From an uncultured Gammaproteobacteria bacterium (lineage in GTDB: Bacteria; Patescibacteriota; Microgenomatia; UBA10105; UBA927), in assembly GCA_964582845.1 (NCBI GenBank), contig CAZOTW010000003.1:4790-40820 (forward strand): a DNA stretch of 36,031 nucleotides, given 5' to 3'. Each line of letters starts with the position of its first letter. Position 1 is the first letter of the stretch. The notes beneath the pieces were generated by a model. It was not told the origin of the DNA. It saw only the letters and a list, made by a program, of their open reading frames with translations, and ran no database searches. This document shows positions 2,667 through 18,956 of the stretch, one piece after another. The translations under genes were made by a program, and so were the position numbers.

Positions 2667-3104
2667 ATGCCGACCGTCAATCAATTAGTCCGTCATGGAC
2701 GACATAGCAAATCAAAAAAGATTAAAGCAACGGCTCTACGGAAGTTTTTTAACGCCAAAGACCGTTTGACCAAACAGCTTCCGTCTCCGTTTAAGCGGGG
2801 AGTGGTGACGCTGGTTAAAACGATGACGCCGAAAAAACCGAACTCGGCACTCCGAAAGGTTGCGCGTGTCCGTTTGTCCAACAAGCAGGAAGTCACCGCG
2901 TATATTCCTGGAATTGGACATGAGCTTACGGAGCATGCTATTGTGCTTGTTCGCGGAGGGCGAGTACCGGATTTACCCGGTGTCAAATATCACATTGTCC
3001 GCGGAAAATTTGACTCTTCGGGAGTTGCGAATCGGAAACAAGGGCGGAGCCGCTATGGCGCAAAAGCCGGTAGTACCGGTCCGGCGACGGCTGCCGCCAG
3101 TTAA
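2667..3104 (+). CDS. rpsL: 30S ribosomal protein S12
   Basis: MPTVNQLVR.., [35 protein letters not shown]. Has an internal N-proximal insertion and an Ala-rich C-terminal tail. Confidence 0.97.
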
Positions 3105-3118
3105 TCAATTATTAATGT

Positions 3119-3595
3119 ATGTCACGTTCAGGACGCGTTATCAAATCTTTACATGCATCTGATCCCGTTTATGGGAACAGGTTGCTTGGCCGATTTATCA
3201 ATCGGGTGATGCATAGCGGGAAAAAGCGTACGGCAGAGCGGCAAGTGTATGGTGCACTGGATGTCATAAAAGAAAAAGGAGAGGATCCTATCAAAGTTTT
3301 TGAAACCGCAATAGCCAATGCCGGACCTAAAATGGAAGTAAAGGCGCGTCGGGTAGGTGGCGCTTCGTATCAGGTCCCGACGGAAGTACGCGGTGACCGG
3401 CGAGTCGCTCTTGCCATGCGGTGGATTGTCGGGTTTGCGAACAAACGGTCCAATAAAGAATACAAATCATTTGCAGAAAAATTAGCGGTGGAACTTATGG
3501 AAGCCGCCAAAGGCCAAGGGGACGCCATCAAAAAACGTGATACGGTGCACCGCATGGCAGAGGCCAACAGGGCGTTTGCACACTTCAAATGGTAA
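3119..3595 (+). CDS. rpsG: 30S ribosomal protein S7
   Basis: Follows rpsL. Contains [15 protein letters not shown] and a C-terminal ..RAFAHFKW. Confidence 0.97.
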
Positions 3596-3606
3596 ACCCT
3601 CTCGTT

Positions 3607-4068
3607 TTATCCTTTTAGCGCCACGACGACGCTATCGGCCCAGGAGTTAATTTTGTCCATATTGCCCGTCTGGTCGGAGTAGAATTTATCAATCCGAAGC
3701 GACGGGACAATTAACTTTCCCTTCATGGTCTTGACCAATTCTTCCAGGTGATCGACAGCGCCGCAAAAGTGCTTGTAGGATGAGTCGCCCAACCCGAAAA
3801 TGACAAACGGTTTTCCTTCGACCGTAACCGTTTTAAGTTTTTCCATGAGCGGTAGGAAATCTTCGTGCGGCATACCCTCGTGACCTTCAAAATCCCAACT
3901 CGGTGAACCCATAAGTATCGCGTGTGGAGCCGAAAAATTTTCAATGGTGGTATCGCGTGCTTCTTTCATGGTGACCGAGTGACCCGCTTTGGTCAGCTTG
4001 TCGGCAACCGTTTGAGCAGTCGTCATCGTGGTTCCTGAATTTGTCGCATAAACGATAAGAATATTCAT
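3607..4068 (-). CDS. flavodoxin (short-chain type)
   Basis: MNILIVYATNSGTT phosphate-binding loop, GSPSWDFEG and FGLGDSSY motifs. AAGGAGGGG Shine-Dalgarno sequence upstream on the minus strand. Convergent with rpsG, with only 11 nt between the stops. Confidence 0.85.
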   Translation of the reverse strand: MNILIVYATNSGTTMTTAQTVADKLTKAGHSVTMKEARDTTIENFSAPHAILMGSPSWDFEGHEGMPHEDFLPLMEKLKTVTVEGKPFVIFGLGDSSYKHFCGAVDHLEELVKTMKGKLIVPSLRIDKFYSDQTGNMDKINSWADSVVVALKG

Positions 4069-4171
4069 GGTTTCCCCTCCTTACTCGTATATAGAAATTG
4101 TACACTGGGTTGTTTTACAATAGCAAGCGTAAGTCCCGAGTGTAATCGAGGGACGCGAGAGTTATTTTATT

Positions 4172-4777
4172 ATGAATCAAAGAGTGAAGTCTCATTTCCA
4201 AAAGGCTGACCCGATACTCTTTGGCGTACTCCAGAAAATAGAGAAAAAGGACGAGCTAGTGCCGCGAAAAAGTGATGATTATTTTTCAGATATCTGTCAG
4301 GCAATTATTAATCAACAGCTGTCGGATAAAGCGGGCGCCACAATTTTTAAACGGTTCGTACACTTGTTTCCACATGGGAAAGTGACGCCGCAGAGCCTCA
4401 TGCGATTATCCGATACGCAGATTCGCGCGGTTGGTCCATCGGGAAGCAAGGTACAGTTCCTTAAATCTCTGGCGCGAAGCGTCATAGCAAAAGAAATTGT
4501 TTTTACTGCTCTTGAAACGCTATCCGATGAAGATGTTAGGAAAGAATTAGTGAAGCTTAAAGGAATCGGCCCGTGGACTGCGGAAATGTTTCTTATGTTC
4601 TCGCTCGGGCGGGAAGATGTATTTTCCTATGGCGATTTGGGCTTGAGAAGGGCTATCCAAAAACTTTACAACTTCAAAAAAGAACCAACAAAGCGACAGA
4701 TGGAAAAAGTTACGAATAGGTGGATGCCATATAGGACGTATGCATGTCGCATTCTATGGAGAAGTTTGGAAATATAA
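4172..4777 (+). CDS. HhH-GPD superfamily DNA glycosylase (AlkA / 3-methyladenine glycosylase II-like)
   Basis: LKGIGPWTAEMFLMFSLGREDVFSYGDLGLRRAI, i.e. a helix-hairpin-helix plus Gly/Pro loop and a conserved Asp. Confidence 0.8.
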   Translation: MNQRVKSHFQKADPILFGVLQKIEKKDELVPRKSDDYFSDICQAIINQQLSDKAGATIFKRFVHLFPHGKVTPQSLMRLSDTQIRAVGPSGSKVQFLKSLARSVIAKEIVFTALETLSDEDVRKELVKLKGIGPWTAEMFLMFSLGREDVFSYGDLGLRRAIQKLYNFKKEPTKRQMEKVTNRWMPYRTYACRILWRSLEI

Positions 4778-4800
4778 AAAATGCGGTACAATAGTATTAT

Positions 4801-5160
4801 ATGAAAATTGCTATCTTTCTTCTGTTTCTTGGGCTCGTTACTGTCGTGTTACTTTTTCCTTTCGTCATGAAGGAAAAGGCGTGTTACGAACAATCACAGG
4901 TGGGATTAGATTTTATCGGGTATAGTGTGCCAGCGCGCGGGTGGGACATAACGGAAGTATGTAAACGGCGTGTGGTGGTGCTTGGTACTCTTGAAGAGTG
5001 TATCCACCAGGCAACGAGGTCAGGCGGCCTTTTGACGAAATACACAAATGGCGTGGTACAAGGAGCCGTTTATATCGTCCGGCCCCTCACCAAAGGATTT
5101 GATACCCTGAAAACCGAGCACAATCAAGAGTGCGCGGATTACGAACAGTATCAGATGTAA
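4801..5160 (+). CDS. hypothetical small secreted or membrane-anchored Cys-containing protein
   Basis: N-terminal hydrophobic segment MKIAIFLLFLGLVTVVLLFPF, 4 Cys. A TACAAT box ends 8 nt before the ATG. Confidence 0.45.
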   Translation: MKIAIFLLFLGLVTVVLLFPFVMKEKACYEQSQVGLDFIGYSVPARGWDITEVCKRRVVVLGTLEECIHQATRSGGLLTKYTNGVVQGAVYIVRPLTKGFDTLKTEHNQECADYEQYQM

Positions 5161-5212
5161 ATATCGCGAGTCTACTATGACCGACTGGTTCTATACGATA
5201 CAATAGATCTGT

Positions 5213-6181
5213 ATGCAGCTTAACTGGGTTGATGTAGTGATTATTGCGATTGTTGCATATTCTGCGTTTCGGGGATGGAAGACGGGGCTTGTCCTTCTGT
5301 TTTCGAACCTCATTTCTTTTATTATTGCGTTGTGGCTGGCGATCAAATTCAACGGAGTGGTGAGTGGGTTTCTTGCAGATAAATTTGGCGTTCCCGCTCT
5401 TTGGGCAACGGTTGCCGGGTATATCGTGGTTGGGTTTACTGCCGAGGTAGTGCTTACTGAATTATTTACGTTGATGATCAGAAAAATACCGGATAAATTG
5501 GCGCTATCCTGGGTAAATAATTGGCTCGGCGCATTGGTGTCGGCCGTCAACGGATTTCTCATCGTCGCATTTTTTATTTTAATTATCTCCGTACTGCCTC
5601 TTCGAGGGACCGTGAAAAATGACATTCGCAAGTCTCAGGTTGGGAAATACATTGTGACGCTCGTCGCTACCCATGGCGGACCGTTGCAATCGACCGTGAA
5701 TGAAGTAGGGAAGAAGGCGACAAAATTTTTTACCATAGAACCGGGGTCGAAAGGCAGTCTTACTATAGATGTTGCTCCGAAGGCATCAGACCTCCATGTG
5801 GATTCGAATTCGGAAGCCCAGATGGTGCAACTCGTGAATGCCGAAAGAAAACTAGCTGGCGTGCCTTCGCTCACTGTCGATTCCAAGATCACAGAAGTAG
5901 CCCGAGAGCATAGCCGCGACATGTTTTTGCGGCGCTATTTTTCTCATCTCACGCCGGAAGGGAAGGATGCCGGTACCCGGATGGAAAATGGGGGCGTCGT
6001 GTTCACCCAGGCGGGAGAAAATATTGCTTATACACCGGATTTACTTACCGCGCATCAGGGGCTCATGGATAGCGAAGAGCATCGGAAAAATATTTTAGAC
6101 CCCGAGTTTCATCGAATCGGCATAGGTATTATTTCTACAGACAGCTTCGGCATGATGGTGACCCAGGAATTTGCAAATTGA
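5213..6181 (+). CDS. CvpA-family membrane domain fused to a CAP/SCP (YkwD-like) extracytoplasmic domain
   Basis: N-terminal half has 4 TM helices beginning MQLNWVDVVIIAI..FRGWKTG (CvpA-like). C-terminal part has LVNAERKLAGVP..AREHSRDM..FSHL..GENIAY..HRKNILDPEFHRIGIG (CAP domain). Confidence 0.75.
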   Translation: MQLNWVDVVIIAIVAYSAFRGWKTGLVLLFSNLISFIIALWLAIKFNGVVSGFLADKFGVPALWATVAGYIVVGFTAEVVLTELFTLMIRKIPDKLALSWVNNWLGALVSAVNGFLIVAFFILIISVLPLRGTVKNDIRKSQVGKYIVTLVATHGGPLQSTVNEVGKKATKFFTIEPGSKGSLTIDVAPKASDLHVDSNSEAQMVQLVNAERKLAGVPSLTVDSKITEVAREHSRDMFLRRYFSHLTPEGKDAGTRMENGGVVFTQAGENIAYTPDLLTAHQGLMDSEEHRKNILDPEFHRIGIGIISTDSFGMMVTQEFAN

Positions 6182-6194
6182 TTACTTCACTTGA

Positions 6195-6890
6195 TTAGTT
6201 TCCGCTATTGAGGATGACGGTGGACCCTTTGAAATTGGTTATGGTAAATGGCGTTTCGCCGTGAAACAGCTTAGATCCCTGTGCGTTGACGGTTACATAC
6301 GTGGTAAGGTTTGGCGATGTTGTGATGGGTTGAAAATTCATATCGATGAGCTGAAACGTCTGTGATGGTGCCGTGATACCCGATGATGGTGTAATCGCAA
6401 GTCCCACGTTTATCGTGCCCGTGAGATTCGCCTGACTCGTTGAGCTAAAGGTAAGTGCCGGTGCAAGCGCAGGATTTTTGCTGGTGCTGATGGAAACTAA
6501 TTTCATTTTTGTTTTATCGAAATCAATTCGTATTTGTCCTTGGTCGACAGACGATTCTGCGTTTACCCATAATTGAAGAAGCACCATGGGTTTTGTGCGG
6601 GATTCCGATGGTACGATCATGATATTGGCGCGAGAGTTGCCTGCTTTTGTCACAATATTCTGTGGTTTTTGGATTTGTTGGGCGATGACAAAACCGACAA
6701 CGAGCATCATGACAAACGAGAGTTTCCAGACAAATTGCGTGCGTACGCCACTATCTATTAATCGTTTATACCATGGGGTCGGGACGATGACCGTTTCCGG
6801 TATTTGTTCAAGTATGACTGTGGGAGGTTGAGAGCCTGGTTCTGTATGTTGTGAATCCGTTGACGATGGTGGTTGGTTATGATCGTCCAT
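6195..6890 (-). CDS. hypothetical membrane-anchored protein with a beta-rich extracytoplasmic domain
   Basis: Pro/Ser/Thr-rich N-terminus, a single TM helix (FVWKLSFVMMLVVGFVIAQQI), then a Ser/Thr/Asn-rich domain. No family recognised. Confidence 0.55.
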   Translation of the reverse strand: MDDHNQPPSSTDSQHTEPGSQPPTVILEQIPETVIVPTPWYKRLIDSGVRTQFVWKLSFVMMLVVGFVIAQQIQKPQNIVTKAGNSRANIMIVPSESRTKPMVLLQLWVNAESSVDQGQIRIDFDKTKMKLVSISTSKNPALAPALTFSSTSQANLTGTINVGLAITPSSGITAPSQTFQLIDMNFQPITTSPNLTTYVTVNAQGSKLFHGETPFTITNFKGSTVILNSGN

Positions 6891-7036
6891 AGGTGGCTAC
6901 CTCTATAATATTACTTGTAAATTACTATAGCAACATGTGTCTCCTTTGTCTCAAGAGTGGAAACGGACTATTGAAGCGGATGATATAGTAGTCCACTCAT
7001 TGACTTTTATATCGTAAATATGTTGAACTAGAGAAC

Positions 7037-7119
7037 TGTTAGGGGTGTCCCGAGCTTGTCGAGGGACTGAGATTATACCCTTTAAACCTGATCTGGATTA
7101 TACCAGCGGAGGGAAACAA
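7037..7119 (+). promoter_or_regulatory. TPP (THI-box) riboswitch aptamer
   Basis: UGUUAGGGGUGUCCCGAGCUUGUCGAGGGACUGAGAUUAUACCCUUUAAACCUGAUCUGGAUUAUACCAGCGGAGGGAAACAA. Matches block for block the E. coli thiM aptamer as I recall it (GGGGUGC..CUGAGA..ACCC..ACCUGAUCUGGAUAAUGCCAGCGUAGGGAA). The GGAGGG Shine-Dalgarno sequence lies inside the aptamer and the 3' strand of P1 abuts the ATG. Confidence 0.9.
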
Positions 7120-7635
7120 ATGAGCCAAGAACGCTCCCACATTTTAGAGCCTCGGATTACCAGCCCGTTTCGTAATGAATACAATTTGTATGAGCAAGGT
7201 GTTGCTCTTCTTATTTTTAATAGAGCAGGCAAAATACTATTAGTCAAAGAGACACACGACGACCCTAGGTACGGAAGGACAGTTGGTCAATGGAATATCG
7301 TTACGGAAACAAGGCAATTTGGCGAACGCGTAAAGCCGAACATACAACGAGCAATTGATGAAGAACTCGGAATGGATTACTCACTGTTTATGATTATTCC
7401 CCGAAGCTATCGGGAAACGAACGGGATATACAATAGAGAGATGGGGTACCGGTATAAATATCGATGTGTATGTTTTGTATACGAAGGGGATCCCGATAGA
7501 CCCGCACATGAGGTATTTCACTGTAATTCCGGCGAAATTGCCGGGTATCAGTGGGTTGCGCCGGATGCGTTAGATCTTTATAATATCGAACCTGGCGCGC
7601 GAAAGGTCATTGAATATTATAAAAGTTTTGGTTGA
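7120..7635 (+). CDS. Nudix-family hydrolase-like protein (degenerate Nudix box)
   Basis: Start ATG at 7120 sits 6 nt after GGAGGG. GVALLIFNRAGKILLVKE...WNIVTETRQFGE-RVKPNIQ-RAIDEELGM fits E-x7-R(E/A)UxEExGU. The track start at 7045 reads through the riboswitch. Confidence 0.65.
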   Translation: MSQERSHILEPRITSPFRNEYNLYEQGVALLIFNRAGKILLVKETHDDPRYGRTVGQWNIVTETRQFGERVKPNIQRAIDEELGMDYSLFMIIPRSYRETNGIYNREMGYRYKYRCVCFVYEGDPDRPAHEVFHCNSGEIAGYQWVAPDALDLYNIEPGARKVIEYYKSFG

Positions 7636-7699
7636 CTCTTTTGCCTCGTGGAAGAAGTTTCATTAGTACGCCTTCAGATTCAGGACAACGATAGTATCT

Positions 7700-8344
7700 T
7701 TACTCAGAAATAGGAGCGGGTTCCTTGGCGATTATGGTAAAACTTCCCTCAAGGGAGTCTACGTCACCTATACTACTTTCCATAGAATGAATCGTAGCGG
7801 ATGTTGGATTCTCGATAGACATCATACCGGTGGCTATTCTATAGGCGCTGGGATTTACCAATAAATTATTCAGTCTACGTAAATCTTCGTCGCGTACTTC
7901 TGCTCTCATAAACGGATATGTATACGTGTCGCCAATCTGTTCCCGATGACCGTTTATGGGGCCTTGTCCCTCGACCAATCTTAATAAGTCTACCGTTCTC
8001 TCCCCATGTCGAAGCAGTCCCGCTTCTCTTCGGGCGACGTCCCATCCTTCGCCGTCATGAGGGTCTAATATCTTGGTGGCATAGGTGCTAGAGATCGGGA
8101 GGTTGGTCTGTGTTTTGACTCGTGTTACTTCAATACCATTCTGCTTCGCAATATCGAGGATTTGATTACATAACCTCGTTATATCAGCGCGTAATTCATC
8201 TCGCCCCTCTGGTGTTCTTATGTCCCGGGCTGCACCACAGTTTGTCGCTACGATCCAAAACCGGCCGTATTTTGCTTCTAATGTGGCTGGATCAAGACCT
8301 TTGTCTTTTGGTTCAAAAAATTTTGGCGCTTCTAGTTGTGACAT
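7700..8344 (-). CDS. hypothetical protein
   Basis: 214-aa ORF with ordinary composition, convergent with the Nudix gene. No motif recognised. Confidence 0.55.
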   Translation of the reverse strand: MSQLEAPKFFEPKDKGLDPATLEAKYGRFWIVATNCGAARDIRTPEGRDELRADITRLCNQILDIAKQNGIEVTRVKTQTNLPISSTYATKILDPHDGEGWDVARREAGLLRHGERTVDLLRLVEGQGPINGHREQIGDTYTYPFMRAEVRDEDLRRLNNLLVNPSAYRIATGMMSIENPTSATIHSMESSIGDVDSLEGSFTIIAKEPAPISE

Positions 8345-8429
8345 ATCGATATTGGAAAATCTGCGATTATATTGTTCTAATGGTCCATAGTATACTCATT
8401 CGCCTTTTCATTTGCAATAGATTTCATTT

Positions 8430-8458
8430 TTGCCCCAACTCCCTAAACGTATTATACT
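8430..8458 (+). promoter_or_regulatory. candidate sigma70-type promoter (TTGCCC-N17-TATACT)
   Basis: Hexamers at 8430-8435 and 8453-8458 with 17-nt spacing, 20 nt upstream of the flavodoxin ATG. Confidence 0.4.
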
Positions 8459-8477
8459 TTGGATGAATCCGTTTCCT

Positions 8478-8960
8478 ATGAACATATTAGTCGTTTATGA
8501 TTCCATGTATGGCAATACCAAAGAAATTGCCAAAGCGATTGCGGGTGGGTTTGGAAAATCGGACACCGTGAAGTTGGTGCAGGCCCGTGAAGCGAAACTT
8601 TCGGATCTTCAGTCCCTCGATCTTCTCGTTGTCGGCTCGCCGACACAGGGAGGGAGAGCCACGTCCTCGGTATATGATTTCTTTACCGATATTCCCCAAA
8701 ACGGGCTAAGCGGTGTGGGTGTGGCCGCATTCGATACGCGTTTTGAACCGGAACTCCAAGGGAAAGCACTGCGTCTGGTCATGGGAATTCTGGGATATGC
8801 TGCGACAAAAATCGGAAACTCACTGACCCAAAAAGGCGGCCGCCTCGTCGTCCCCCCGGAGGGCTTTATCGTTCGCGGTAAAGAGGGACCACTTAAAGAA
8901 GGGGAACTCAAACGCGCGGCCACGTGGGCTGCCGCTCTTCGCACGAACAAAAGGGTATGA
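8478..8960 (+). CDS. flavodoxin-fold protein
   Basis: MNILVVYDSMYGNTKEIAKAIAGG.. and VVGSPTQGG are typical flavodoxin motifs. I chose the ATG at 8478 rather than the track start at 8430. Confidence 0.8.
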   Translation: MNILVVYDSMYGNTKEIAKAIAGGFGKSDTVKLVQAREAKLSDLQSLDLLVVGSPTQGGRATSSVYDFFTDIPQNGLSGVGVAAFDTRFEPELQGKALRLVMGILGYAATKIGNSLTQKGGRLVVPPEGFIVRGKEGPLKEGELKRAATWAAALRTNKRV

Positions 8961-9121
8961 TGCTGTAGAGAATGGCTTATAGTTGATTAATATGAGATAA
9001 TACACTGCTCTTTCCAAGAGTATTCATCACCTTCGTAATCGCACGATCGCACATTGATATACGATGAATTTTTGACCTATCGCTACGGAAAAGCGGTTTT
9101 TTCGTTTGGAGGGTTCCATCC

Positions 9122-9352
9122 ATGAAACAGGAAAAACCTGTCCGCAAGGGGCGACGAGGGAGTATTAAAGTGAAATGGGAGGAGTTCTTTATTGGCGCGG
9201 TGCTAATTGGGATTTCAATAATCCTAATTGGCGTAATTTGCAATGCTCTGAATCCCCCGGTCATCGCCACCATGATGGTGATGGTTATCCCTTTTAGCTT
9301 CGCACTGTGGCTTCTTTACCTCGCATATCTATGCGATTTTCATCCGTCGTAA
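9122..9352 (+). CDS. hypothetical small membrane protein (2 TM)
   Basis: GGAGGG lies 8 nt upstream of the ATG. Basic N-terminus followed by two hydrophobic helices. Confidence 0.45.
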   Translation: MKQEKPVRKGRRGSIKVKWEEFFIGAVLIGISIILIGVICNALNPPVIATMMVMVIPFSFALWLLYLAYLCDFHPS

Positions 9353-9573
9353 GGGCCCCACAAAAGCGCGAAATGTCGGCATAACCTTCCTTTTATTGAG
9401 AGAGGCCAGGAGTGTACACGCGCATCACGCGCACTTTGCATTTGCAATCGTACACACACCGGCCCCTCAGTTTTCTTTGATGTGTAGCGCTTACCACACT
9501 CACACGAAGTGCTGAATGGAACTTTCCCGCGCCGCCCTCTGGCCAACCTCATTCCATGTGAGATAATCAGTCC

Positions 9574-10434
9574 ATGAACCTTATTATTCCTCTTCTCCTC
9601 TCCTTTGTTCCCATGATTATGTGGGGGACGATGGATGTTTTGGGCGGACTCCTTGCGCGAAAAGCACCTGCAACAATTGGTTTTTTTACCACACAATTGA
9701 TGGGTCTCCTTATAACACTTACTTTTTTGCCCTTCATTCCGAAACCAACAGTCATAACCATAATTCCTTTATTTCTCCTCGGCATACTTCCCGTATTTTC
9801 ATGGCTTCTGTATTTTAAAGCCGCTCAAGTCACGGATATTTCCATCGTCGGCCCCATATCCCGGGTTGATTTTGTTCTGACAAGTATATTGGGTATGGTA
9901 TTTCTGCAGGAAGCAGCGACCCCGGCGAAATTTATCAGCATCGGTTTGGTATTTGTGGGAAGTGGTCTATTGTCTCTGGACTGGTCAAAGCTTACTCATA
10001 AAAAAATTCCGAACTTAACGGTCGGTGCTGTCCTTGCCTTTTTCTGCGCGGTTGCTGTCGGCTTGCAGCTTTTCTTGATGGCGCCGGAATCCCGTATAAA
10101 CGGATGGTATTACACGTCATTATTTTTACGTATCGCCGCCACCGCGTATGCAGGACTATGCGTCGTTCTGTTTAAGCAAACGAAAACGTTATTTCAATCG
10201 TATTTACCTTGGAAATTGATAGCTGGCGTGGCATTGGTGGACGTTATCGGATTGAGTGTTTATAACTTCACTGTCATGCGGTATCCGGTATCGTATGTGT
10301 CCGTTATCGTGTCCTGCGCGTCCTTCGTTACCATCCTTATCGCCCGCTTATGGTTAAAGGAAAAACTCCGTTCGCTCCAATACGTCGGAATTTTTCTGAT
10401 GATATTAGGCATTATCAGTTTACAAATCTCCTGA
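9574..10434 (+). CDS. EamA/DMT-family transporter
   Basis: About 10 predicted TM helices in two similar halves, with an N-terminal ..MIMWGTMDV.. typical of EamA. TGaGATAAT ends 6 nt before the ATG. Confidence 0.8.
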   Translation: MNLIIPLLLSFVPMIMWGTMDVLGGLLARKAPATIGFFTTQLMGLLITLTFLPFIPKPTVITIIPLFLLGILPVFSWLLYFKAAQVTDISIVGPISRVDFVLTSILGMVFLQEAATPAKFISIGLVFVGSGLLSLDWSKLTHKKIPNLTVGAVLAFFCAVAVGLQLFLMAPESRINGWYYTSLFLRIAATAYAGLCVVLFKQTKTLFQSYLPWKLIAGVALVDVIGLSVYNFTVMRYPVSYVSVIVSCASFVTILIARLWLKEKLRSLQYVGIFLMILGIISLQIS

Positions 10435-10447
10435 ATCGATTCAGGAG
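10428..10447. repeat. perfect 20-bp palindrome spanning the EamA stop codon
   Basis: CTCCTGAATC|GATTCAGGAG. It directly abuts repeat R1. Confidence 0.9.
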
Positions 10448-10515
10448 AGTAAATAGTTCAATTATTCGAATAATTGAACTGTCTGTTTTCCGTGCACCTC
10501 GGAGGTGAGTAAAAC
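10448..10515 (+). repeat. island repeat R1 (26-bp perfect palindrome + GC hairpin)
   Basis: AGTAAAT-AGTTCAATTATTC|GAATAATTGAACT (10455-10480), then a T-rich spacer, then CCGTGCACCTCgGAGGTGaGTAAAAC. Confidence 0.9.
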
Positions 10516-10552
10516 GTGGACCGCCTCGCTTCGCGAACAAAAAGACACATAA
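10514..10552 (+). pseudogene. relic 3' end of a flavodoxin-like gene (copy 1)
   Basis: ACGTGGaCcGCCtCgCTTCGC--GAACAAAAaG aligns with flavodoxin 8922-8955. In frame it reads ..KTWTASLREQKDT*. No upstream ORF. Confidence 0.5.
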
Positions 10553-10690
10553 GAACAGGTGCGAACCTAATCCACCCGGAGGGTGGCAGACATTGGTCTT
10601 GCGCTGGCTCTGGACTACGGGTTCTTATCCCTTTACCTCGTAAGCAGAAAAAAATAGATCGGTCGTGCAAAACGAAAAGTTGATTTATGA

Positions 10691-10699
10691 TGATATAAT
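10691..10699 (+). promoter_or_regulatory. extended -10 promoter element TGATATAAT (cassette 1)
   Basis: Perfect TGnTATAAT. The same 9-mer recurs at 12605-12613 in front of cassette 2. Confidence 0.5.
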
Positions 10700-10713
10700 A
10701 TTCGCGATTAGTT

Positions 10714-11229
10714 GTGCTATCTGAATTTTATTCTTCTATGACTTCGCTACCTGATTATAAGGATAGTTTTGCAGAGGCGTACTTATTTGCTATTTCTGCT
10801 GCAGCAGGGCTACCGATTGAGAGATCGACTCGTAGAACAGATAACCTTGGAATTGATCTAACTTTGAGTAAAAAGAACGATTCGGTATCCCCAGGGTCTC
10901 AAATTAACATACAATTAAAAGGAGTTGCAGAAAATAGCGCCTCAATGTTTAAAGAGGATGAAAGATCGATAAGTTATAATTTCCATAATCCTTGTAATCC
11001 AATAGGGGCACATTATCTAGTTGTAGTGCGATTGCCGAACGATGGAACACCTGAAGATTGGTTAACCTTGACTGAAAAAGAGTTGATAATAAGAAAGTGT
11101 GCATTCTATACAAAAATTGTGCCAAAGATGAAATCAGGTTTTGTTAAAATACCAAAAACTCAGCTATTGACTCATAATAATCTCCCGACACTGTTTCCTA
11201 GTGCTATAGACTTGGTAAATAATTTGTAA
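10714..11229 (+). CDS. DUF4365-like PD-(D/E)xK (restriction-endonuclease fold) protein
   Basis: E21 (SFAEAYLF), D43/D48 (RTDNLGIDLTL) and Q67-L-K69 (INIQLKG) occur in the order and spacing of the PD-(D/E)xK core. GTG start at 10714, alternative ATG at 10738. AT-rich. Confidence 0.6.
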   Translation: MLSEFYSSMTSLPDYKDSFAEAYLFAISAAAGLPIERSTRRTDNLGIDLTLSKKNDSVSPGSQINIQLKGVAENSASMFKEDERSISYNFHNPCNPIGAHYLVVVRLPNDGTPEDWLTLTEKELIIRKCAFYTKIVPKMKSGFVKIPKTQLLTHNNLPTLFPSAIDLVNNL

Positions 11230-11232
11230 AAT

Positions 11233-12390
11233 ATGAATATAATTTCAATAAGTAGTTTTCAAGATGTATTCCAGAGAATAGGTTTGATTAAAAGCAAATC
11301 TAAATCAGGTAACTATGAAATTTGGAAATCAAGGGAACGCGACGATCTTTTTACAGTACTACCTTTAGCAAAAAGTAGTCATGACTATGAGTACTATCAG
11401 GAAAAAAACGTTGAGTTTATTAATTATTTACTGGGGTTAGTGTACAACGAAGAAAACAAAGAGGAGATATTGAGTCAATTGAATGGATACAATTATAAAC
11501 TAATAAATAGAATACAAACAAAAGAACCATATTCACAAGAAACAGTCCCTTATAGGTTAGCAGATGTACTAATTAACAAAAATGTTAACGCGTTTCTATA
11601 TTTCTTTAATCAGAAAACAAAAGGAAAGATTCCTCTGGGTATCAAAAATATAAGATTGAACCACACGCAGCATGGTAGCTTTGTTATACCAGTGTCGATA
11701 GAATTAGTTGGTCAAGAAACTTTTCCGACAATCCCTTCGCAAATAAATAAAACCCTAAGAGACTATTTGGATGTTGTAGATCTTATTTCTGGTTTAGATA
11801 TGTCCAACGAAGAAAAATTTGCGTCTTCAGTTTTGGAGAACGACTTGGATTCGACATTAGTAAGGAATTTTATTGATAGTACTTCGAGTGTAGCTTTTTA
11901 TAAAAAAGAATATAGCGATTTTATTCAAAACGTTTCAATATCAGGAAGAAGTAACCCAATACTTGATTATCAACTTGAGAGAAAATATAAGAATTTTCCA
12001 GAAGTGAGTTTGGCCCAATTACAACCAGCTTCGGTGGAGTTTTTTGAATATCTTGAACGAAAAGAAACAGAGCGGGATGAGCAAGCAATATATGCAGTTA
12101 ATACAACAATCGAAGTTATTGTTGACGCTTTAGATAGGGGTGGCAAAGTAAAATTTAGTGTAGTGGCGGTAGGCGCACAAAGGATTGATAAGCCTTTTAA
12201 GGCGTCTATAGATGAACAGCCGCAAGTAAGGCTAAATGAGTTTGCAAGTGCTTTTATTACTGGTGAAGTGCTTGAGCTTAATGGAGATATTCGAAAGCCA
12301 AAACATAAGTTGGGGAAAATATTGGTTCATGAACTTAAACGCAAGAATCCTAAATTGACGCTTCTTGATGATATTACAGAAAAAAAGTAG
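11233..12390 (+). CDS. hypothetical protein, orphan partner of the nuclease-like gene
   Basis: 385-aa ORF starting 3 nt after the upstream stop. No P-loop, methyltransferase, helicase or HTH motif recognised. Confidence 0.6.
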   Translation: MNIISISSFQDVFQRIGLIKSKSKSGNYEIWKSRERDDLFTVLPLAKSSHDYEYYQEKNVEFINYLLGLVYNEENKEEILSQLNGYNYKLINRIQTKEPYSQETVPYRLADVLINKNVNAFLYFFNQKTKGKIPLGIKNIRLNHTQHGSFVIPVSIELVGQETFPTIPSQINKTLRDYLDVVDLISGLDMSNEEKFASSVLENDLDSTLVRNFIDSTSSVAFYKKEYSDFIQNVSISGRSNPILDYQLERKYKNFPEVSLAQLQPASVEFFEYLERKETERDEQAIYAVNTTIEVIVDALDRGGKVKFSVVAVGAQRIDKPFKASIDEQPQVRLNEFASAFITGEVLELNGDIRKPKHKLGKILVHELKRKNPKLTLLDDITEKK

Positions 12391-12481
12391 TGTTTGTTAG
12401 ATTGCTAAACAATCTCGTTATTTTCTCCACATTTCTCTTCAACGCCTCTTTCGTTTTGAGAAACCCGAGGGAGTGAAAAGC

Positions 12482-12553
12482 AGTAAATAGTTCGATTATT
12501 CGAATAATCGAACTATTTGGAATTTTTTCCGTGCACCTCGGAGGTGCGTAAAC
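12482..12553 (+). repeat. island repeat R2 (34-bp perfect palindrome + GC hairpin)
   Basis: AAATAGTTCGATTATTC|GAATAATCGAACTATTT (12485-12518), then GGAATTTTTTCC, then GTGCACCTCgGAGGTGCGTAAAC. Flanked by identical 13-mers AAACCCGAGGGAG at 12461-12473 and 12554-12566. Confidence 0.9.
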
Positions 12554-12604
12554 AAACCCGAGGGAGCGCGGGATTTCTTTTTGGAGCGTGCTACAGCCTT
12601 CCTG

Positions 12605-12613
12605 TGATATAAT
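12605..12613 (+). promoter_or_regulatory. extended -10 promoter element TGATATAAT (cassette 2, leaderless geometry)
   Basis: Perfect TGnTATAAT ending 7 nt before the ATG at 12621. Confidence 0.5.
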
Positions 12614-12620
12614 TAAGTTA

Positions 12621-13124
12621 ATGCCAGAAATAAACCAAGTTAACGACGAAAATACTCAACCATCTTCCTTACCTGAGGCTTTTATTCCCGAGGTTGATTT
12701 AGTAGGAGTATCAGTTGACCCCAAGAAAGCCGCAGAATTTGTAGAAACACCTGGTATCAAACAAGCGCTCGCACAAGCTGGAACATTTCTTGGAGGTGCA
12801 GGAGTGACAATGGCTGGATTATCTGACTTTATCAACGTTACTATGAACCAACCCACAGGTCCTGAACGAACTACTGCAATGATAACAACTTTTTTAATAA
12901 TGAATATAGGTATAGTTATGCTTTGTTCATCGAAAAATGTAACTGAAATGTTTCAACATGGTTTACTGCGAATCCAATCTATTGCTTCAAGAGATAAAGA
13001 TATTGTTACAGGAGAAGGCGAACTTACTGCAAAGGGGCGACTGGCTCTTTCCCCTGATAAAGAGCCGGAATTATCTTTAGAGCAGTTATTAGCACGATCA
13101 AACGGGAATCAACAACAAAAATGA
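12621..13124 (+). CDS. hypothetical 2-TM membrane protein
   Basis: I chose the ATG at 12621 because it has -10 geometry; the track start at 12588 is a GTG. Hydrophobic segments AGTFLGGAGVTMAGLSDFI and AMITTFLIMNIGIVMLCSS, with a polar Gln-rich C-terminus. Confidence 0.55.
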   Translation: MPEINQVNDENTQPSSLPEAFIPEVDLVGVSVDPKKAAEFVETPGIKQALAQAGTFLGGAGVTMAGLSDFINVTMNQPTGPERTTAMITTFLIMNIGIVMLCSSKNVTEMFQHGLLRIQSIASRDKDIVTGEGELTAKGRLALSPDKEPELSLEQLLARSNGNQQQK

Positions 13125-13483
13125 CCGTAGAAGAACAATATATTATTTTAGAGAATATTCTTTATGAGTTAGGGTATGATGATGAAAAAATACTTGCGTT
13201 TCGACGGACTTTTTTTGAACGTCTCATTTTAAGATTAGGAAAAACCACGTTAATGATATTTCCTGTTACTCAGCAAGCTGCTTTTTTTGATTTATTAAAA
13301 AAAAGCGAAACAATTCCAGAAGATATTAATGCTTTCTTTAAAAGAAATAATATTTCTCAAACAACAGTTTCTTTATTAGACAAAGAATTTACCATGCTAC
13401 TTGAAGAAACAAAACAAAATATCTTAAAAGTTGTTACAGAATCTCAAAAGAAAATCATTGAAGAGAAATTTAATTCAGCTTAA
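13121..13483 (+). CDS. hypothetical small helical protein
   Basis: 120 aa. Start overlaps the upstream stop (ATGA), implying translational coupling. No family recognised. Confidence 0.55.
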   Translation: MTVEEQYIILENILYELGYDDEKILAFRRTFFERLILRLGKTTLMIFPVTQQAAFFDLLKKSETIPEDINAFFKRNNISQTTVSLLDKEFTMLLEETKQNILKVVTESQKKIIEEKFNSA

Positions 13484-13567
13484 GATTTTTTTATTACATC
13501 ACTACTGACTAAGGCAAACTCAAAGTTTGAGTCCTATCGGGGTTAAAGTAGTTATAAGAATATATAC

Positions 13568-13631
13568 AGTTTAATTATTCGAATAATTGAACTATTAGGA
13601 ATTTTCCGTGCACCTCGGAGGTGCGTAAAAC
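13568..13631 (+). repeat. island repeat R3 (palindrome with one mismatch + GC hairpin)
   Basis: AGTTtAATTATTC|GAATAATTGAACT (13568-13593), then ATTAGGAATTTTCC, then GTGCACCTCgGAGGTGCGTAAAAC. Confidence 0.9.
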
Positions 13632-13671
13632 TTGGGCTACCGCTCTTCGTACGAAGAAAAGGGAAGAATGA
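13632..13671 (+). pseudogene. relic 3' end of a flavodoxin-like gene (copy 2)
   Basis: TGGGCTaCCGCTCTTCGtACGAAgAAAAGGG matches flavodoxin 8925-8955 at 28 of 31 positions. In frame it reads ..KTWATALRTKKREE*, versus TWAAALRTNKRV* in the intact gene. Confidence 0.6.
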
Positions 13672-13675
13672 GGAT

Positions 13676-13710
13676 AGTATATACGTAGTATATATCAAGT
13701 ATATACTACG
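13676..13710. repeat. three phased AGTATATA 8-mers (11-bp period) overlapping an 11-bp inverted repeat
   Basis: 8-mers at 13676, 13687 and 13698. Inverted repeat CGTAGTATATA-tcaag-TATATACTACG at 13684-13710 covers a TATACT box (13702-13707) 14 nt before the ATG at 13722. Confidence 0.85.
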
Positions 13711-13721
13711 CAGTTTTCGAC

Positions 13722-14024
13722 ATGATGCAGAAAAAGGTTACATGGTACACTATAAATGTGAAATTCTTGCGCCCTCGATTGGTTAACATCTTGCCTACTC
13801 TCATTCTTTTGTTTCTCCTCATCCTCTGGGAACACGCGGCGTTGCCGACCGGCGGGTATGTATTGGTGCGCTATGTGCCGGTTTTTGTATTCGTCGACTA
13901 CGTAAAGCTTCAGTATTACGGTGGCGCGTTACTTTTTATCGGGTTTTTCCTGATTGTATATGTGGTGGTTTCGTTGGGCGTTGCCATACTTTCGAGCATT
14001 CTTCGGCACATAAAAACTCCATAA
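13722..14024 (+). CDS. hypothetical membrane protein
   Basis: 100 aa with 2-3 strongly hydrophobic helices (ILPTLILLFLLILW, GGALLFIGFFLIVYVVVSLGVAIL). Confidence 0.5.
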   Translation: MMQKKVTWYTINVKFLRPRLVNILPTLILLFLLILWEHAALPTGGYVLVRYVPVFVFVDYVKLQYYGGALLFIGFFLIVYVVVSLGVAILSSILRHIKTP

Positions 14025-14086
14025 TCGATGTAGAACTTTTTTCGCACGGGGATAACATGGTGCACCTTTGCTATACTTGAGGCAGG

Positions 14087-15070
14087 ATGAGTAACGATCT
14101 TGCTATACTTCTTGCCCGAACATATCTTCAAATCCCCTTTGATCAGTTTCTCAAAGAAGTGAAAACTCAATATCCGCGACTTGGGGAGATAACGCAGTTT
14201 CAACCGATCACGGAAGGATACGAAGATGCCAATATATTGCTCGTCACAGAGACAGGAACGTACGTCATTAAAATATTCTCGAAAGACAGGAGTGTAGAAA
14301 ATGTTAGAAGTTACATCCACATCCTTGAGGAAGCGCAAAAAATTGGCGTACCGGTAACCCGGCTTGTTCCCGGGACAAAAGGTAGCATAAGTTTCGCGGC
14401 GGAAAATACCAAGACCCCGTATTGCATTGCGGAGTTTTTTGACGGGAATGATTTTCAGGAAAAATCTCCGACGATGGATGATATGGTTCGCGTCGCTTCC
14501 TATCTTGCGAAACTGAATACGCTTCGTTTTCCGATGACGGAATATTATGACTCATGGGGAAATAAAAATCTTGCAGTTGAGTACGAAAAAAATAAGGAGA
14601 GTCTCACACGCGAGCAGGCAGAATTGATTGCGCCGGTTGTTGAGAGCTTCAAGAAGCTGGATTTTTCCAAATTCAGCACATCAATTATTCATGGTGACAT
14701 GCAGCGAAAACACGTGCTGAAAAACGCTAAAGGCGAATACTGCATTTTGGATTTCGGGTGTGCCGCGAACGGTCCGAAGGTCATCGAATTATCGACGCAT
14801 CTTGCGTGGTTTTGTTTAGGGGAAGATACGTGGAGTGCGCGGAAAGATATTATGAATAAGGTAGTTGAGGAGTATACATCGGTGCATCACCTGACGAAAT
14901 ACGAACTTGATGCGCTACCCATACTCATGCGTGCTTGCTATGCAGCATATTATCTGAAAACCTGTGTATTGATTGGTGACGGAAACACGAGTCAGGAAAC
15001 GGCCCAATGGAATAAAACGTCTCTTCAAATGCTTCGTTTAGCCGCGCTTGCGGGAAGAGGGGAATTCTAG
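14087..15070 (+). CDS. APH/choline-kinase/homoserine-kinase-II family phosphotransferase
   Basis: IIHGDMQRKHVL catalytic loop followed by ILDFGCA (DFG-type metal-binding motif). The usual Asn at D+5 is His here. Confidence 0.8.
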   Translation: MSNDLAILLARTYLQIPFDQFLKEVKTQYPRLGEITQFQPITEGYEDANILLVTETGTYVIKIFSKDRSVENVRSYIHILEEAQKIGVPVTRLVPGTKGSISFAAENTKTPYCIAEFFDGNDFQEKSPTMDDMVRVASYLAKLNTLRFPMTEYYDSWGNKNLAVEYEKNKESLTREQAELIAPVVESFKKLDFSKFSTSIIHGDMQRKHVLKNAKGEYCILDFGCAANGPKVIELSTHLAWFCLGEDTWSARKDIMNKVVEEYTSVHHLTKYELDALPILMRACYAAYYLKTCVLIGDGNTSQETAQWNKTSLQMLRLAALAGRGEF

Positions 15071-15076
15071 TACAAT
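15048..15076 (+). promoter_or_regulatory. candidate promoter (TTGCGG-N17-TACAAT)
   Basis: Hexamers at 15048-15053 and 15071-15076, spanning the kinase stop codon. Confidence 0.35.
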
Positions 15077-15099
15077 ATGAGCGTTGAAACACGGCTAAT

Positions 15100-15125
15100 G
15101 CGCCCGGAGTGGCGCTTTTTATTTT
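15100..15125 (+). terminator. intrinsic-terminator-like hairpin abutting the fusA ATG
   Basis: GCGCC-cggagt-GGCGC followed by TTTTTATTTT. The fusA ATG begins at the very next base. Confidence 0.55.
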
Positions 15126-18647: not shown

Positions 18648-18956
18648 ATGCCGAAAGGAAGAATTCGAGTACGTTTAAAAGCATACGACAGTAGAATCAT
18701 AGACGATTGCTGTCAGAAGATTTTAGATACCGCCGTGCGGACGGGCGCTCGGGTCGTGGGACCCGTGCCGCTCCCTACGGATAAAGAGCATTTTAACGTG
18801 GCACGAAGTCCTTTCATCGATCGAAATAGCCGTGAAGATTTCATGATAAAGACGCATAAACGGCTTGTCGATATCATAGAGCCGACGGATAAAACAATTG
18901 ACCAACTGATGCATTTGGATTTGCCGGCAGGAGTGGATGTAGAGATAAAGATGTGA
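18648..18956 (+). CDS. rpsJ: 30S ribosomal protein S10
   Basis: [14 protein letters not shown]...THKRLVDI. I chose the ATG at 18648 rather than the track GTG at 18633. Confidence 0.95.

Follow-up and report, generated by a model that had tools for sequence, protein, structure and literature searches.

The prophages e14 and phage 21 integrate in the icd gene of Escherichia coli in such a way that the element supplies a substitute 3' end for the gene, and the original end is left as an untranslated relic at the far attachment (att) site. A comparable arrangement is described here in a stretch of 36,031 nt (the window) from contig CAZOTW010000003.1 of assembly GCA_964582845.1, where short untranslated relics of the last 12-13 codons of a flavodoxin gene lie behind two of the three copies of a structured repeat, R, and bound two small cargo segments, A and B. 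The present end of the gene is named Ya, the two relics Yb and Yc, and the repeats R1 to R3. This locus differs from e14 and phage 21, which are integrase-encoding prophages with a far longer duplicated gene end and no serial relics. Homologues of the encoded proteins come from organisms named Curtissbacteria, Roizmanbacteria or 'Patescibacteria group', that is, from the Candidate Phyla Radiation (CPR)/Patescibacteria. Insertion at the 3' end of a gene is an event of an already known type; the case presented here, in a poorly known CPR-type bacterium, is unproven, and no report of a flavodoxin gene as attachment site was found in the literature searched.

In the ICESt1/ICESt3 family of Streptococcus thermophilus, integrative elements and cis-mobilizable elements (CIMEs) accrete in tandem at the 3' end of the protein-coding gene fda (reviewed in PMC5704250). 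As in CIMEs, the segments at the flavodoxin locus are bounded by direct repeats of the target 3' end with an internal att-like site between them, integrase and transfer genes are lacking, and the target gene is intact. Unlike CIMEs, the cores of which are near-identical, the proposed cores are here 69-88% identical, no related autonomous element or integrase is known, the distal boundaries bear a conserved two-hairpin repeat of 59-64 nt without known counterpart, the segments are tiny (1.6 and 3.1 kb) and the host is of the CPR/Patescibacteria type. Serial integration that leaves partial copies of the target gene has also been described for the tycheposons of Prochlorococcus, where partial tRNA copies are left behind (10.1101/2020.12.28.424599). 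Under serial integration the flavodoxin locus would share with tycheposons that one site is reused, older elements are pushed deeper, partial target 3' ends are scattered along the locus and the cargo includes defence and transport genes. In contrast to the flavodoxin locus, with its protein-coding target, tycheposons use tRNA or tmRNA genes; many of them code for a tyrosine recombinase, and excision has been demonstrated by experiment.

Copies of the flavodoxin 3' end

The intact flavodoxin gene (positions 8478-8960 of the window, plus strand; 160 amino acids from the ATG at 8478, with an alternative start at 8463) matches the Pfam families Flavodoxin_1, Flavodoxin_5 and Flavodoxin_3, and the closest non-self protein among its 1008 homologues is 64% identical. 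Its present 3' end, Ya (8922-8960, plus strand), reads TWAAALRTNKRV up to the stop codon, has the tail of 11 amino acids after a conserved tryptophan that is typical for the family, and served as the reference copy for both relics; it would be the attL core. The well-preserved relic Yc (13630-13671, plus strand; TWATALRTKKREE and stop) lies after R3 and is the proposed attR core. Its positions 13630-13663 are identical to 8922-8955 at 30 of 34 sites (blastn E=1.4e-7 in a 6-kb search), and its local-alignment score of 48 was reached in none of 2000 shuffles, the maximum of which was 27. The more diverged relic Yb (10514-10552, plus strand; TWTASLREQKDT and stop) follows R1 and would be an internal att core. 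In this copy 10514-10542 agree with 8922-8952 at 25/31 positions with a 2-nt gap (E=0.039), and the score of 31, to be compared with a null of 16.5 +/- 2.2, was reached in one of 2000 shuffles. When the whole window was scanned with the flavodoxin end, Yb and Yc were the only non-self matches.

Both copies had been pointed out in the original prediction, a first reading of the DNA, and its description of them was confirmed by a formal alignment of the three copies: the match of 28/31 from TGGGCT after R3 is exact (0 expected in shuffles), with the start of the homology now set at 13630, the copy after R1 has the 2-nt gap that was claimed, and the relic translations are as given there. The in-frame stop codon that it had placed inside the palindrome of R is a TGA, found upstream of both Yb and Yc.

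Yb and Yc start with the same flavodoxin base (8922) and at the same offset, immediately 3' of the sequence ...GTAAA, which carries the last conserved base of R. The homologous block comprises 34 nt (8922-8955), and the bases beyond it, up to the stop codons, contribute little. Yb, if read ungapped, consists of 12 codons plus stop and equals the real flavodoxin end in length; its gap sits in the middle of a small palindrome, TTCG(CA/TA/--)CGAA, which is present in Ya, Yb and Yc. Three of the four differences between Ya and Yc, as read from the alignment, are located at third codon positions, and this suggests, weakly with n=4, that both were formerly coding ends.

As judged from the family comparison, the relics are derived from the flavodoxin gene, and the gene end is not derived from them. 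Among 120 flavodoxin homologues the tryptophan is conserved together with the A-x-x-[LI] after it, and the closest homologues end in QWAASLRPEEK and RWTAALCKLKK, similar to the relic peptides WTASLREQKDT and WATALRTKKREE. The relic peptides carry W-[AT]-x-[AS]-L-R, to be compared with WAASLR and WTAALC in the closest homologues, and their tails of 11-12 amino acids after the tryptophan are in the usual range of the family. No flavodoxin in the database searched ends in a tail of the Yb or Yc type, and the hidden Markov model (HMM) of the family, applied to six-frame peptides, missed the relics, which are too short and have a tail that is not conserved.

An AT-rich hairpin (CGTAGTATATA...TATATACTACG, then CAGTTTTCG; 13681-13717, plus strand, inverted repeat I11) lies directly 3' of Yc and may be the original flavodoxin terminator. 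A short open reading frame (ORF) just 5' of the EamA gene of segment A (9516-9563; MELSRAALWPTSFHVR and stop) bears the flavodoxin motif EL.RAA.W. This motif was picked post hoc and occurs once per 300 shuffled windows, and neither the family HMM (85% of the shuffles score equally high) nor DNA alignment gave the ORF significance; possibly it is a decayed flavodoxin-end relic of greater age.

The structured repeat R

Each copy of R consists of a 26-bp palindrome, AGTTCAATTATTCGAATAATTGAACT, a linker of 5-10 nt and an invariant block, TTTTCC-GTGCACCTCGGAGGTG-(A/C)GTAAA. R1 (10455-10513, plus strand) has a perfect palindrome (10455-10480), a linker of 5 nt and the block TTTTCC-GTGCACCTCGGAGGTGA-GTAAA (10486-10513); R2 (12489-12552, or 12461-12566 with its flanking repeats, plus strand) has its palindrome at 12489-12514 and its block at 12525-12552; and in R3 (13568-13629, plus strand) the palindrome (13568-13593) contains one T.G wobble and the block is located at 13602-13629. 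R1 and R3 are identical at 25/26 and 27/28 positions up to the Y junction, with the linker GTCTG and GTGAGTAAA as private variants of R1. The three copies are mosaic: R1 and R2 have the left flank in common, R2 and R3 the linker, and R1 and R3 the right end. Relative to R1, the R2 palindrome shows a compensatory change from A-T to G-C; this pair and the single wobble are the whole covariation of R, which has no statistical power with three copies (174/500 shuffles reach it). R folds as two separate hairpins, the geometry of its palindrome is 10-6-10 (AGTTCAATTA-TTCGAA-TAATTGAACT), and it is absent elsewhere in the window.

The search for R in other sequences was carried out with 20-mers and 18-mers of its hairpin block. 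These gave no match in IMG/VR, two matches in GTDB genomes (Archangium and an actinomycete), which are taken as chance because about one was expected, and 55 matches in JGI metagenomes, all of them in contigs with 56-78% G+C and none with the R flanking sequence. The palindrome and flavodoxin-end patterns had no match in IMG/VR, R3 together with Yc had none in phage or plasmid records, and no Rfam family, the CRISPR repeat families (CRISPR-DR) included, matched R. Elements carrying R and a flavodoxin-end core beside an integrase, the search for which had been suggested by the original prediction, were not found in IMG/VR, phage or plasmid records; with the R/flavodoxin-end pattern absent from these and R from GTDB and JGI, no related autonomous element sharing the att site was detected in these collections.

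The R hairpin CACCTC-G-GAGGTG (10495-10507, 12534-12546 and 13611-13623) pairs an anti-Shine-Dalgarno-like sequence with a perfect Shine-Dalgarno-like one. At 10 nt 3' of the R1 hairpin a GTG opens an ORF of 55 amino acids (10516-10683), and a TTG opens an 18-codon ORF after R3; translation from this site is not conserved, because R2 has no start codon at that spacing. The possibility that the right half of R or the sequence after R2 (KPEGARDFFLERATAFL and stop) is a decayed, internally deleted flavodoxin 3' region was rejected, as neither DNA alignment nor the family HMM supported it. In the relative with the closest flavodoxin (locus L002), two motifs resembling the hairpin block (5732-5768 and 5856-5893) occur within 190 nt past the flavodoxin stop codon, in the form TTTTCC, up to 18 nt and CCACCTCCCAGGTGG. 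This form was not found in five other loci or in the rest of the window; it may represent a terminator peculiar to the clade or else a related site.

Junction geometry and proposed serial insertion

The order along the locus is flavodoxin gene with Ya, segment A, R1, Yb, segment B (which includes R2), R3, Yc and downstream DNA. The junctions are sharp, since to the left of 8922 the flavodoxin sequence agrees with the R block at 3/28 positions only, and on the right side the similarity of the Y copies fades at the stop codons; right after the R junction, Yb and Yc agree at 18/34 positions ungapped. Homology past the stop codons among the three copies and L002 was considered and discarded, the alignment being unconvincing. 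The homology is thus confined to Y and has one register, as in the att core of an integrative element or CIME, and the locus has the form of a CIME (att-like sites and no integrase found with Pfam, PADLOC or PHROGs or by the fold of the 385-aa ORF), not that of an autonomous element.

Such a layout has the geometry that the Campbell model describes as B-O-P' / P-O-B', R taking the place of a P arm, and it is the classical pattern of attL, internal att and attR of tandem site-specific integration. Three Y copies are present for two R+Y segments, one of them after the last R, and this fits serial integration, while tandem duplication predicts n copies and not n+1. The order of similarity (Ya-Yc 30/34 > Ya-Yb 25/31 > Yb-Yc, the lowest) fits neither succession of target-site duplications, which argues for cores of separate origin.

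A serial insertion of two segments into the flavodoxin 3' end according to the classical att model is given a somewhat better than even chance, and this model and a cassette variant centred on R, when taken together, are likely to include the correct explanation. Under serial insertion, two cargo-only segments, A (8961-10513) and B (10553-13629), would have entered successively into the last 12 flavodoxin codons by Campbell-type, most likely site-specific, recombination. The circular form of each segment would carry R as a P-arm-like site beside its own version of the flavodoxin end (34-39 nt) as the core. After recombination the gene would be kept intact, ending in the copy of the element, and the previous gene end would be pushed behind R at the far boundary of the element, where it would no longer be translated. 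Ya would have been supplied by the most recently inserted element, Yc would probably be the original host end, and R would mark the distal end of each segment. Because no recombinase is encoded in the segments, these would be CIME-like, with the enzyme provided in trans or since lost. The copies with their common register, the sharp junctions, the foreign composition of segment B and the lack of a recombinase gene are observed; circular intermediates, the succession of events, the kind of enzyme and what R does are inferred.

Cargo of the two segments

The cargo of segment A (8961-10454, plus strand) comprises a membrane ORF of 76 amino acids (9122-9352) and an EamA-family transporter gene (9574-10434; Pfam EamA, E=1.9e-23). 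That of segment B (10553-13567, plus strand) comprises a DUF4365/PDC-M02A gene (10714-11229), a PDC-M02B-like gene encoding 385 amino acids (11233-12390), R2, and two ORFs of 178 (12588-13124) and 120 amino acids (13121-13483) without match in Pfam, PADLOC or PHROGs. The first two genes match a candidate defence pair in PADLOC (PDC-M02A, E=1.8e-20; PDC-M02B, E=1.8e-5), and Pfam places the first of them in DUF4365. Segment B is compositionally foreign, with a G+C of 0.31-0.41 against about 0.46 for the window. The closest homologues of the DUF4365/385-aa gene pair (54% identity) are located at the edge of a phage-like element (L065) that encodes a large serine recombinase and has no R-like palindrome. 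The AlphaFold2 model of the 385-aa protein (predicted local distance difference test score, pLDDT, 82) gave no significant match in the PDB, the weak and partial ones being of the oligonucleotide/oligosaccharide-binding (OB) fold type (E >= 0.019), and the proposal that this ORF is a hidden recombinase was rejected because the confident model has no recombinase fold.

A perfect 10-nt inverted repeat, CAAAACGAAA / TTTCGTTTTG (10668-10677 and 12449-12458), encloses the PDC-M02-like pair; the number expected by chance for these two short flanks is roughly 0.04.

Relatives of the locus

The closest relatives in synteny are L002, with the flavodoxin that is 64% identical, and L062, a genome of 1.2 Mb with an APH protein 63% identical. 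Both are without segments A and B and carry a convergent LysE gene at the position of segment A. The island parts held in common are CvpA-CAP, Peptidase_S51 and the convergent LysE in L002 and L062, and HhH-GPD and APH-fusA in L062. At about 63-64% amino-acid identity and with differing neighbours, these loci show a variable locus and not an empty site. The empty configuration that the original prediction had proposed to look for was not found; the relatives without the segments stand at this distance. The flavodoxin loci of L002, L066 and L069 show no duplicated gene end. Exact look-ups of the flavodoxin, EamA, APH and 385-aa proteins retrieved only a sibling scaffold, MFIZ01000012.1 (assembly GCA_001779035.1; 99.9% identity to the window, separate record), and a 5.7-kb Logan contig with the same layout, and no strain-level variant. 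The island upstream of fusA in L062 is similar and is filled differently.

Weight of the evidence for the proposed serial insertion

Several results speak against serial insertion. One concerns the middle junction: positions 9875-10538 of the window (664 nt) correspond to a run of 471 N in MFIZ01000012.1 (11398-11868), which takes the place of two-thirds of EamA on its 3' side, of all of R1 and of the 25 nt with which Yb begins, and a Logan contig from the same strain as MFIZ01000012.1 stops inside EamA at window position 9738. Because of this gap R1 and Yb are supported by a single assembly, whereas Ya, R2, R3 and Yc are found in both the window and MFIZ01000012.1, and the 3' end of Yb (10539-10552) is joined to segment B in both. 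In addition, R2 is not followed by a flavodoxin relic (score 18, reached by 432/2000 shuffles); instead, the two copies of a perfect 13-nt direct repeat, AAACCCGAGGGAG (12461-12473 and 12554-12566), stand 80 nt apart on either side of R2 with 10 nt more, an arrangement not predicted by serial insertion. Pfam, PADLOC and PHROGs revealed neither a tyrosine or serine recombinase nor a transposase or an excisionase between 8.4 and 15 kb. Segment A has a host-like G+C (0.44-0.47), yet it would be the later arrival in the model. The Y copies differ mutually at 4 to 9 positions (69-88% core identity), and therefore no recent exchange is visible and the crossover point is not placeable. Finally, no empty site was found, the nearest relatives being at about 63% amino-acid identity, and the collections searched contained no second genome with R.

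The result on recombinases extends to the ten ORFs scanned with Pfam (7.7-15.1 kb) and to the precomputed Pfam hits of the gene lists of the sibling scaffold (about 26 kb), about 11 kb at the 3' end of the window lying outside. R2 with its 13-nt repeats is a miniature core-R-core arrangement that is too small for a circle, and for the AAACCCGAGGGAG pair a target-site duplication, a substrate of slippage and a secondary att core are all conceivable; no other mismatch-free copy of AAACCCGAGGGAG exists in the window. Breaks inside EamA in several assemblies hint that segment A varies between strains or poses a problem of coverage.

For the claims of the original prediction the consequences are mixed. 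Its reading is the best one and is partly supported, although unproven. Site-specific integration agrees with the common register, the sharp junctions, the n+1 gene ends and the similarity order of the Y copies, and the foreign composition of segment B and the lack of both segments in the relatives also speak in its favour, but no recombinase, empty site or excision junction was found to go with it. At least two nested or tandem insertions, one with EamA and one with the cassettes and each with R at its distal end, agree with the two segments bounded by R+Y; the R2 copy without relic, and the gap of the sibling assembly at R1 and Yb, are not explained by the reading.

Alternative explanations

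It is unlikely that the locus is a cassette array like those of integrons or dif modules, in which R itself recombines, through its palindrome or its folded hairpins, by R x R exchange. The flavodoxin end would then be a fixed primary site like attI, and Y would be the part 3' of the crossover that moves with the neighbouring cassette. Such an array would account for three near-identical and mosaic R copies, all of which come shortly after a gene or gene pair, with all genes co-directional, for the R2 that bounds a cassette without flavodoxin core, and for the candidate defence pair as one of the cassettes; the palindrome is lox/dif-like and has kept its symmetry through the compensatory change in R2 and the T.G wobble in R3, but covariation carries no weight when it comes from three sequences. 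As in integron arrays, the cassettes are short, co-oriented and mostly promoterless, end in a structured repeat, follow a fixed start site and include defence cargo. Unlike integron arrays, the locus starts at the flavodoxin gene, has no intI-like (nor Xer-like) gene among the ten ORFs scanned with Pfam and no R''/R' core motifs (GTTRRRY / RYYYAAC) in or beside R1-R3, the two motifs being each other's reverse complement so that both strands were covered. It also has two separate hairpins instead of one bulged attC stem, and a 34-nt gene end 3' of the junction where integron cassettes have a 6-nt core. No R lies to the left of segment A, so that A would not be a cassette in such an array. When compared to Xer/dif systems (integrative mobile elements exploiting Xer, IMEX, and dif modules), the 10-6-10 geometry of R stands beside arms of about 11 bp around a centre of 6-8 bp.

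It is also decidedly unlikely that R+Y is a self-contained homing module of cargo-only cassettes in a CPR bacterium, made of a two-hairpin repeat joined to a 32-34-nt copy of the target. It could act as folded single-stranded DNA read by a recombinase, integron-like with the gene 3' end as primary site, or as an RNA guide. If this were true, the choice of target and the repair of the target gene would both be encoded within 100 nt. The chance that R+Y stands for an attachment or guide mechanism of an unfamiliar kind is small.

Local duplication without mobile elements, by target-site duplication at a staggered cut, slippage at the palindrome or segmental duplication followed by decay, is improbable. 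Long perfect palindromes provoke slippage, and the 13-nt direct repeat around R2 could be a target-site duplication or a slippage product. However, neither succession of duplications yields the observed order of Y similarity, the duplicated lengths are uneven (34-39 nt against 13 nt), the R copies are far more alike than the adjoining Y copies, the copies enclose unrelated cargo, part of which is compositionally foreign, and there are n+1 Y copies for n segments. A transposon or a miniature inverted-repeat transposable element was rejected, as the ends share no inverted repeat of >=9 nt and the flanking repeats are of 34-39 nt (69-88%) twice and of 13 nt (100%) once.

Very improbable, though striking in its geometry, is a guide-like module in which the 3' half of R, the hairpin GCACCTCGGAGGTGC with GTAAA(AC), would be a repeat of the type found in clustered regularly interspaced short palindromic repeats (CRISPR) or a right-end RNA scaffold, and the adjoining 32-34 nt would serve as spacer or guide, matching the flavodoxin 3' end and steering insertion or retention of the element there. 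Examples are known from CRISPR-associated transposons (CASTs), which have atypical spacers directed against att sites, and from TnpB, which has omega RNAs at the right end. A match of spacer length to a conserved gene 3' end does exist: the block has the size of a spacer (34 nt, or 32 after the shared AC), follows a hairpin and a handle-like tail of 5-7 nt, and has CC before it in the flavodoxin gene. The position of the module, at the distal cargo end, is also that of the homing spacers of CASTs, and an R-like hairpin, CCACCCGGAGGGTGG (10573-10587), is found 3' of Yb. Against these features, flanking repeats and cas or tns genes are missing: Yc has no second repeat after it, leaving one R per Y, and cas, tns, tnpB and iscB genes were not detected with Pfam, PADLOC or PHROGs. 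The segment ends have no common terminal inverted repeats of >=9 nt, R matches neither CRISPR-DR nor another RNA family of Rfam, and no array of GTDB genomes or JGI metagenomes contains its 18- or 20-mers. Furthermore, three of the four differences between Ya and Yc are on third codon positions, as coding divergence predicts, and the sequence after R2 matches just 13 nt of a site 80 nt upstream.

A chimeric join of EamA, R1 and Yb, made by the assembler across R or between strains and leaving only Yc and one insertion as real, would explain the N run and the end of the Logan contig at 9738, but it is hardly credible. The private variants of R1, and a Yb that resembles neither Ya nor Yc, rule out a collapsed copy; in the sibling scaffold, too, segment B follows directly on the 3' end of Yb; and the breaks lie inside EamA, 580-700 nt before R1, and not at the repeat.

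Genomic setting

The locus described is hosted by an 11.5-kb stretch of accessory genes (3600-15100) between rpsL-rpsG (2667-3595) and fusA (15126), with tuf and the S10 operon downstream of the fusA end of this stretch. The accessory stretch contains a second flavodoxin gene on the minus strand (3607-4068), HhH-GPD, CvpA-CAP, NUDIX, the flavodoxin gene, the cassettes and APH. The differences between the window and MFIZ01000012.1 are clustered at 1438-1471 (4), 5314-5341 (5) and 18764-18776 (3 substitutions), in clusters that span 13-34 nt and look like strain-level recombination or gene-conversion tracts. The cumulative GC skew climbs steadily over the window, and the locus is therefore not a replication terminus.

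Biological significance

Mobile elements and the formation of islands are poorly described in CPR/Patescibacteria. If serial insertion is correct, the flavodoxin 3' end in the island just upstream of fusA would be a concrete hot spot in such a genome, and R would be a candidate recombination site. Because the junctions are located to single-nucleotide precision, existing metagenome reads can be searched directly for excision and empty-site products; runs that contain this population include SRR1605725 and SRR4030042. If the enzyme were not a classical integrase, R+Y would be a new kind of attachment site. For the organism, the flavodoxin end would provide an entry route by which a PDC-M02-like candidate defence system and a transporter came into a very small genome.

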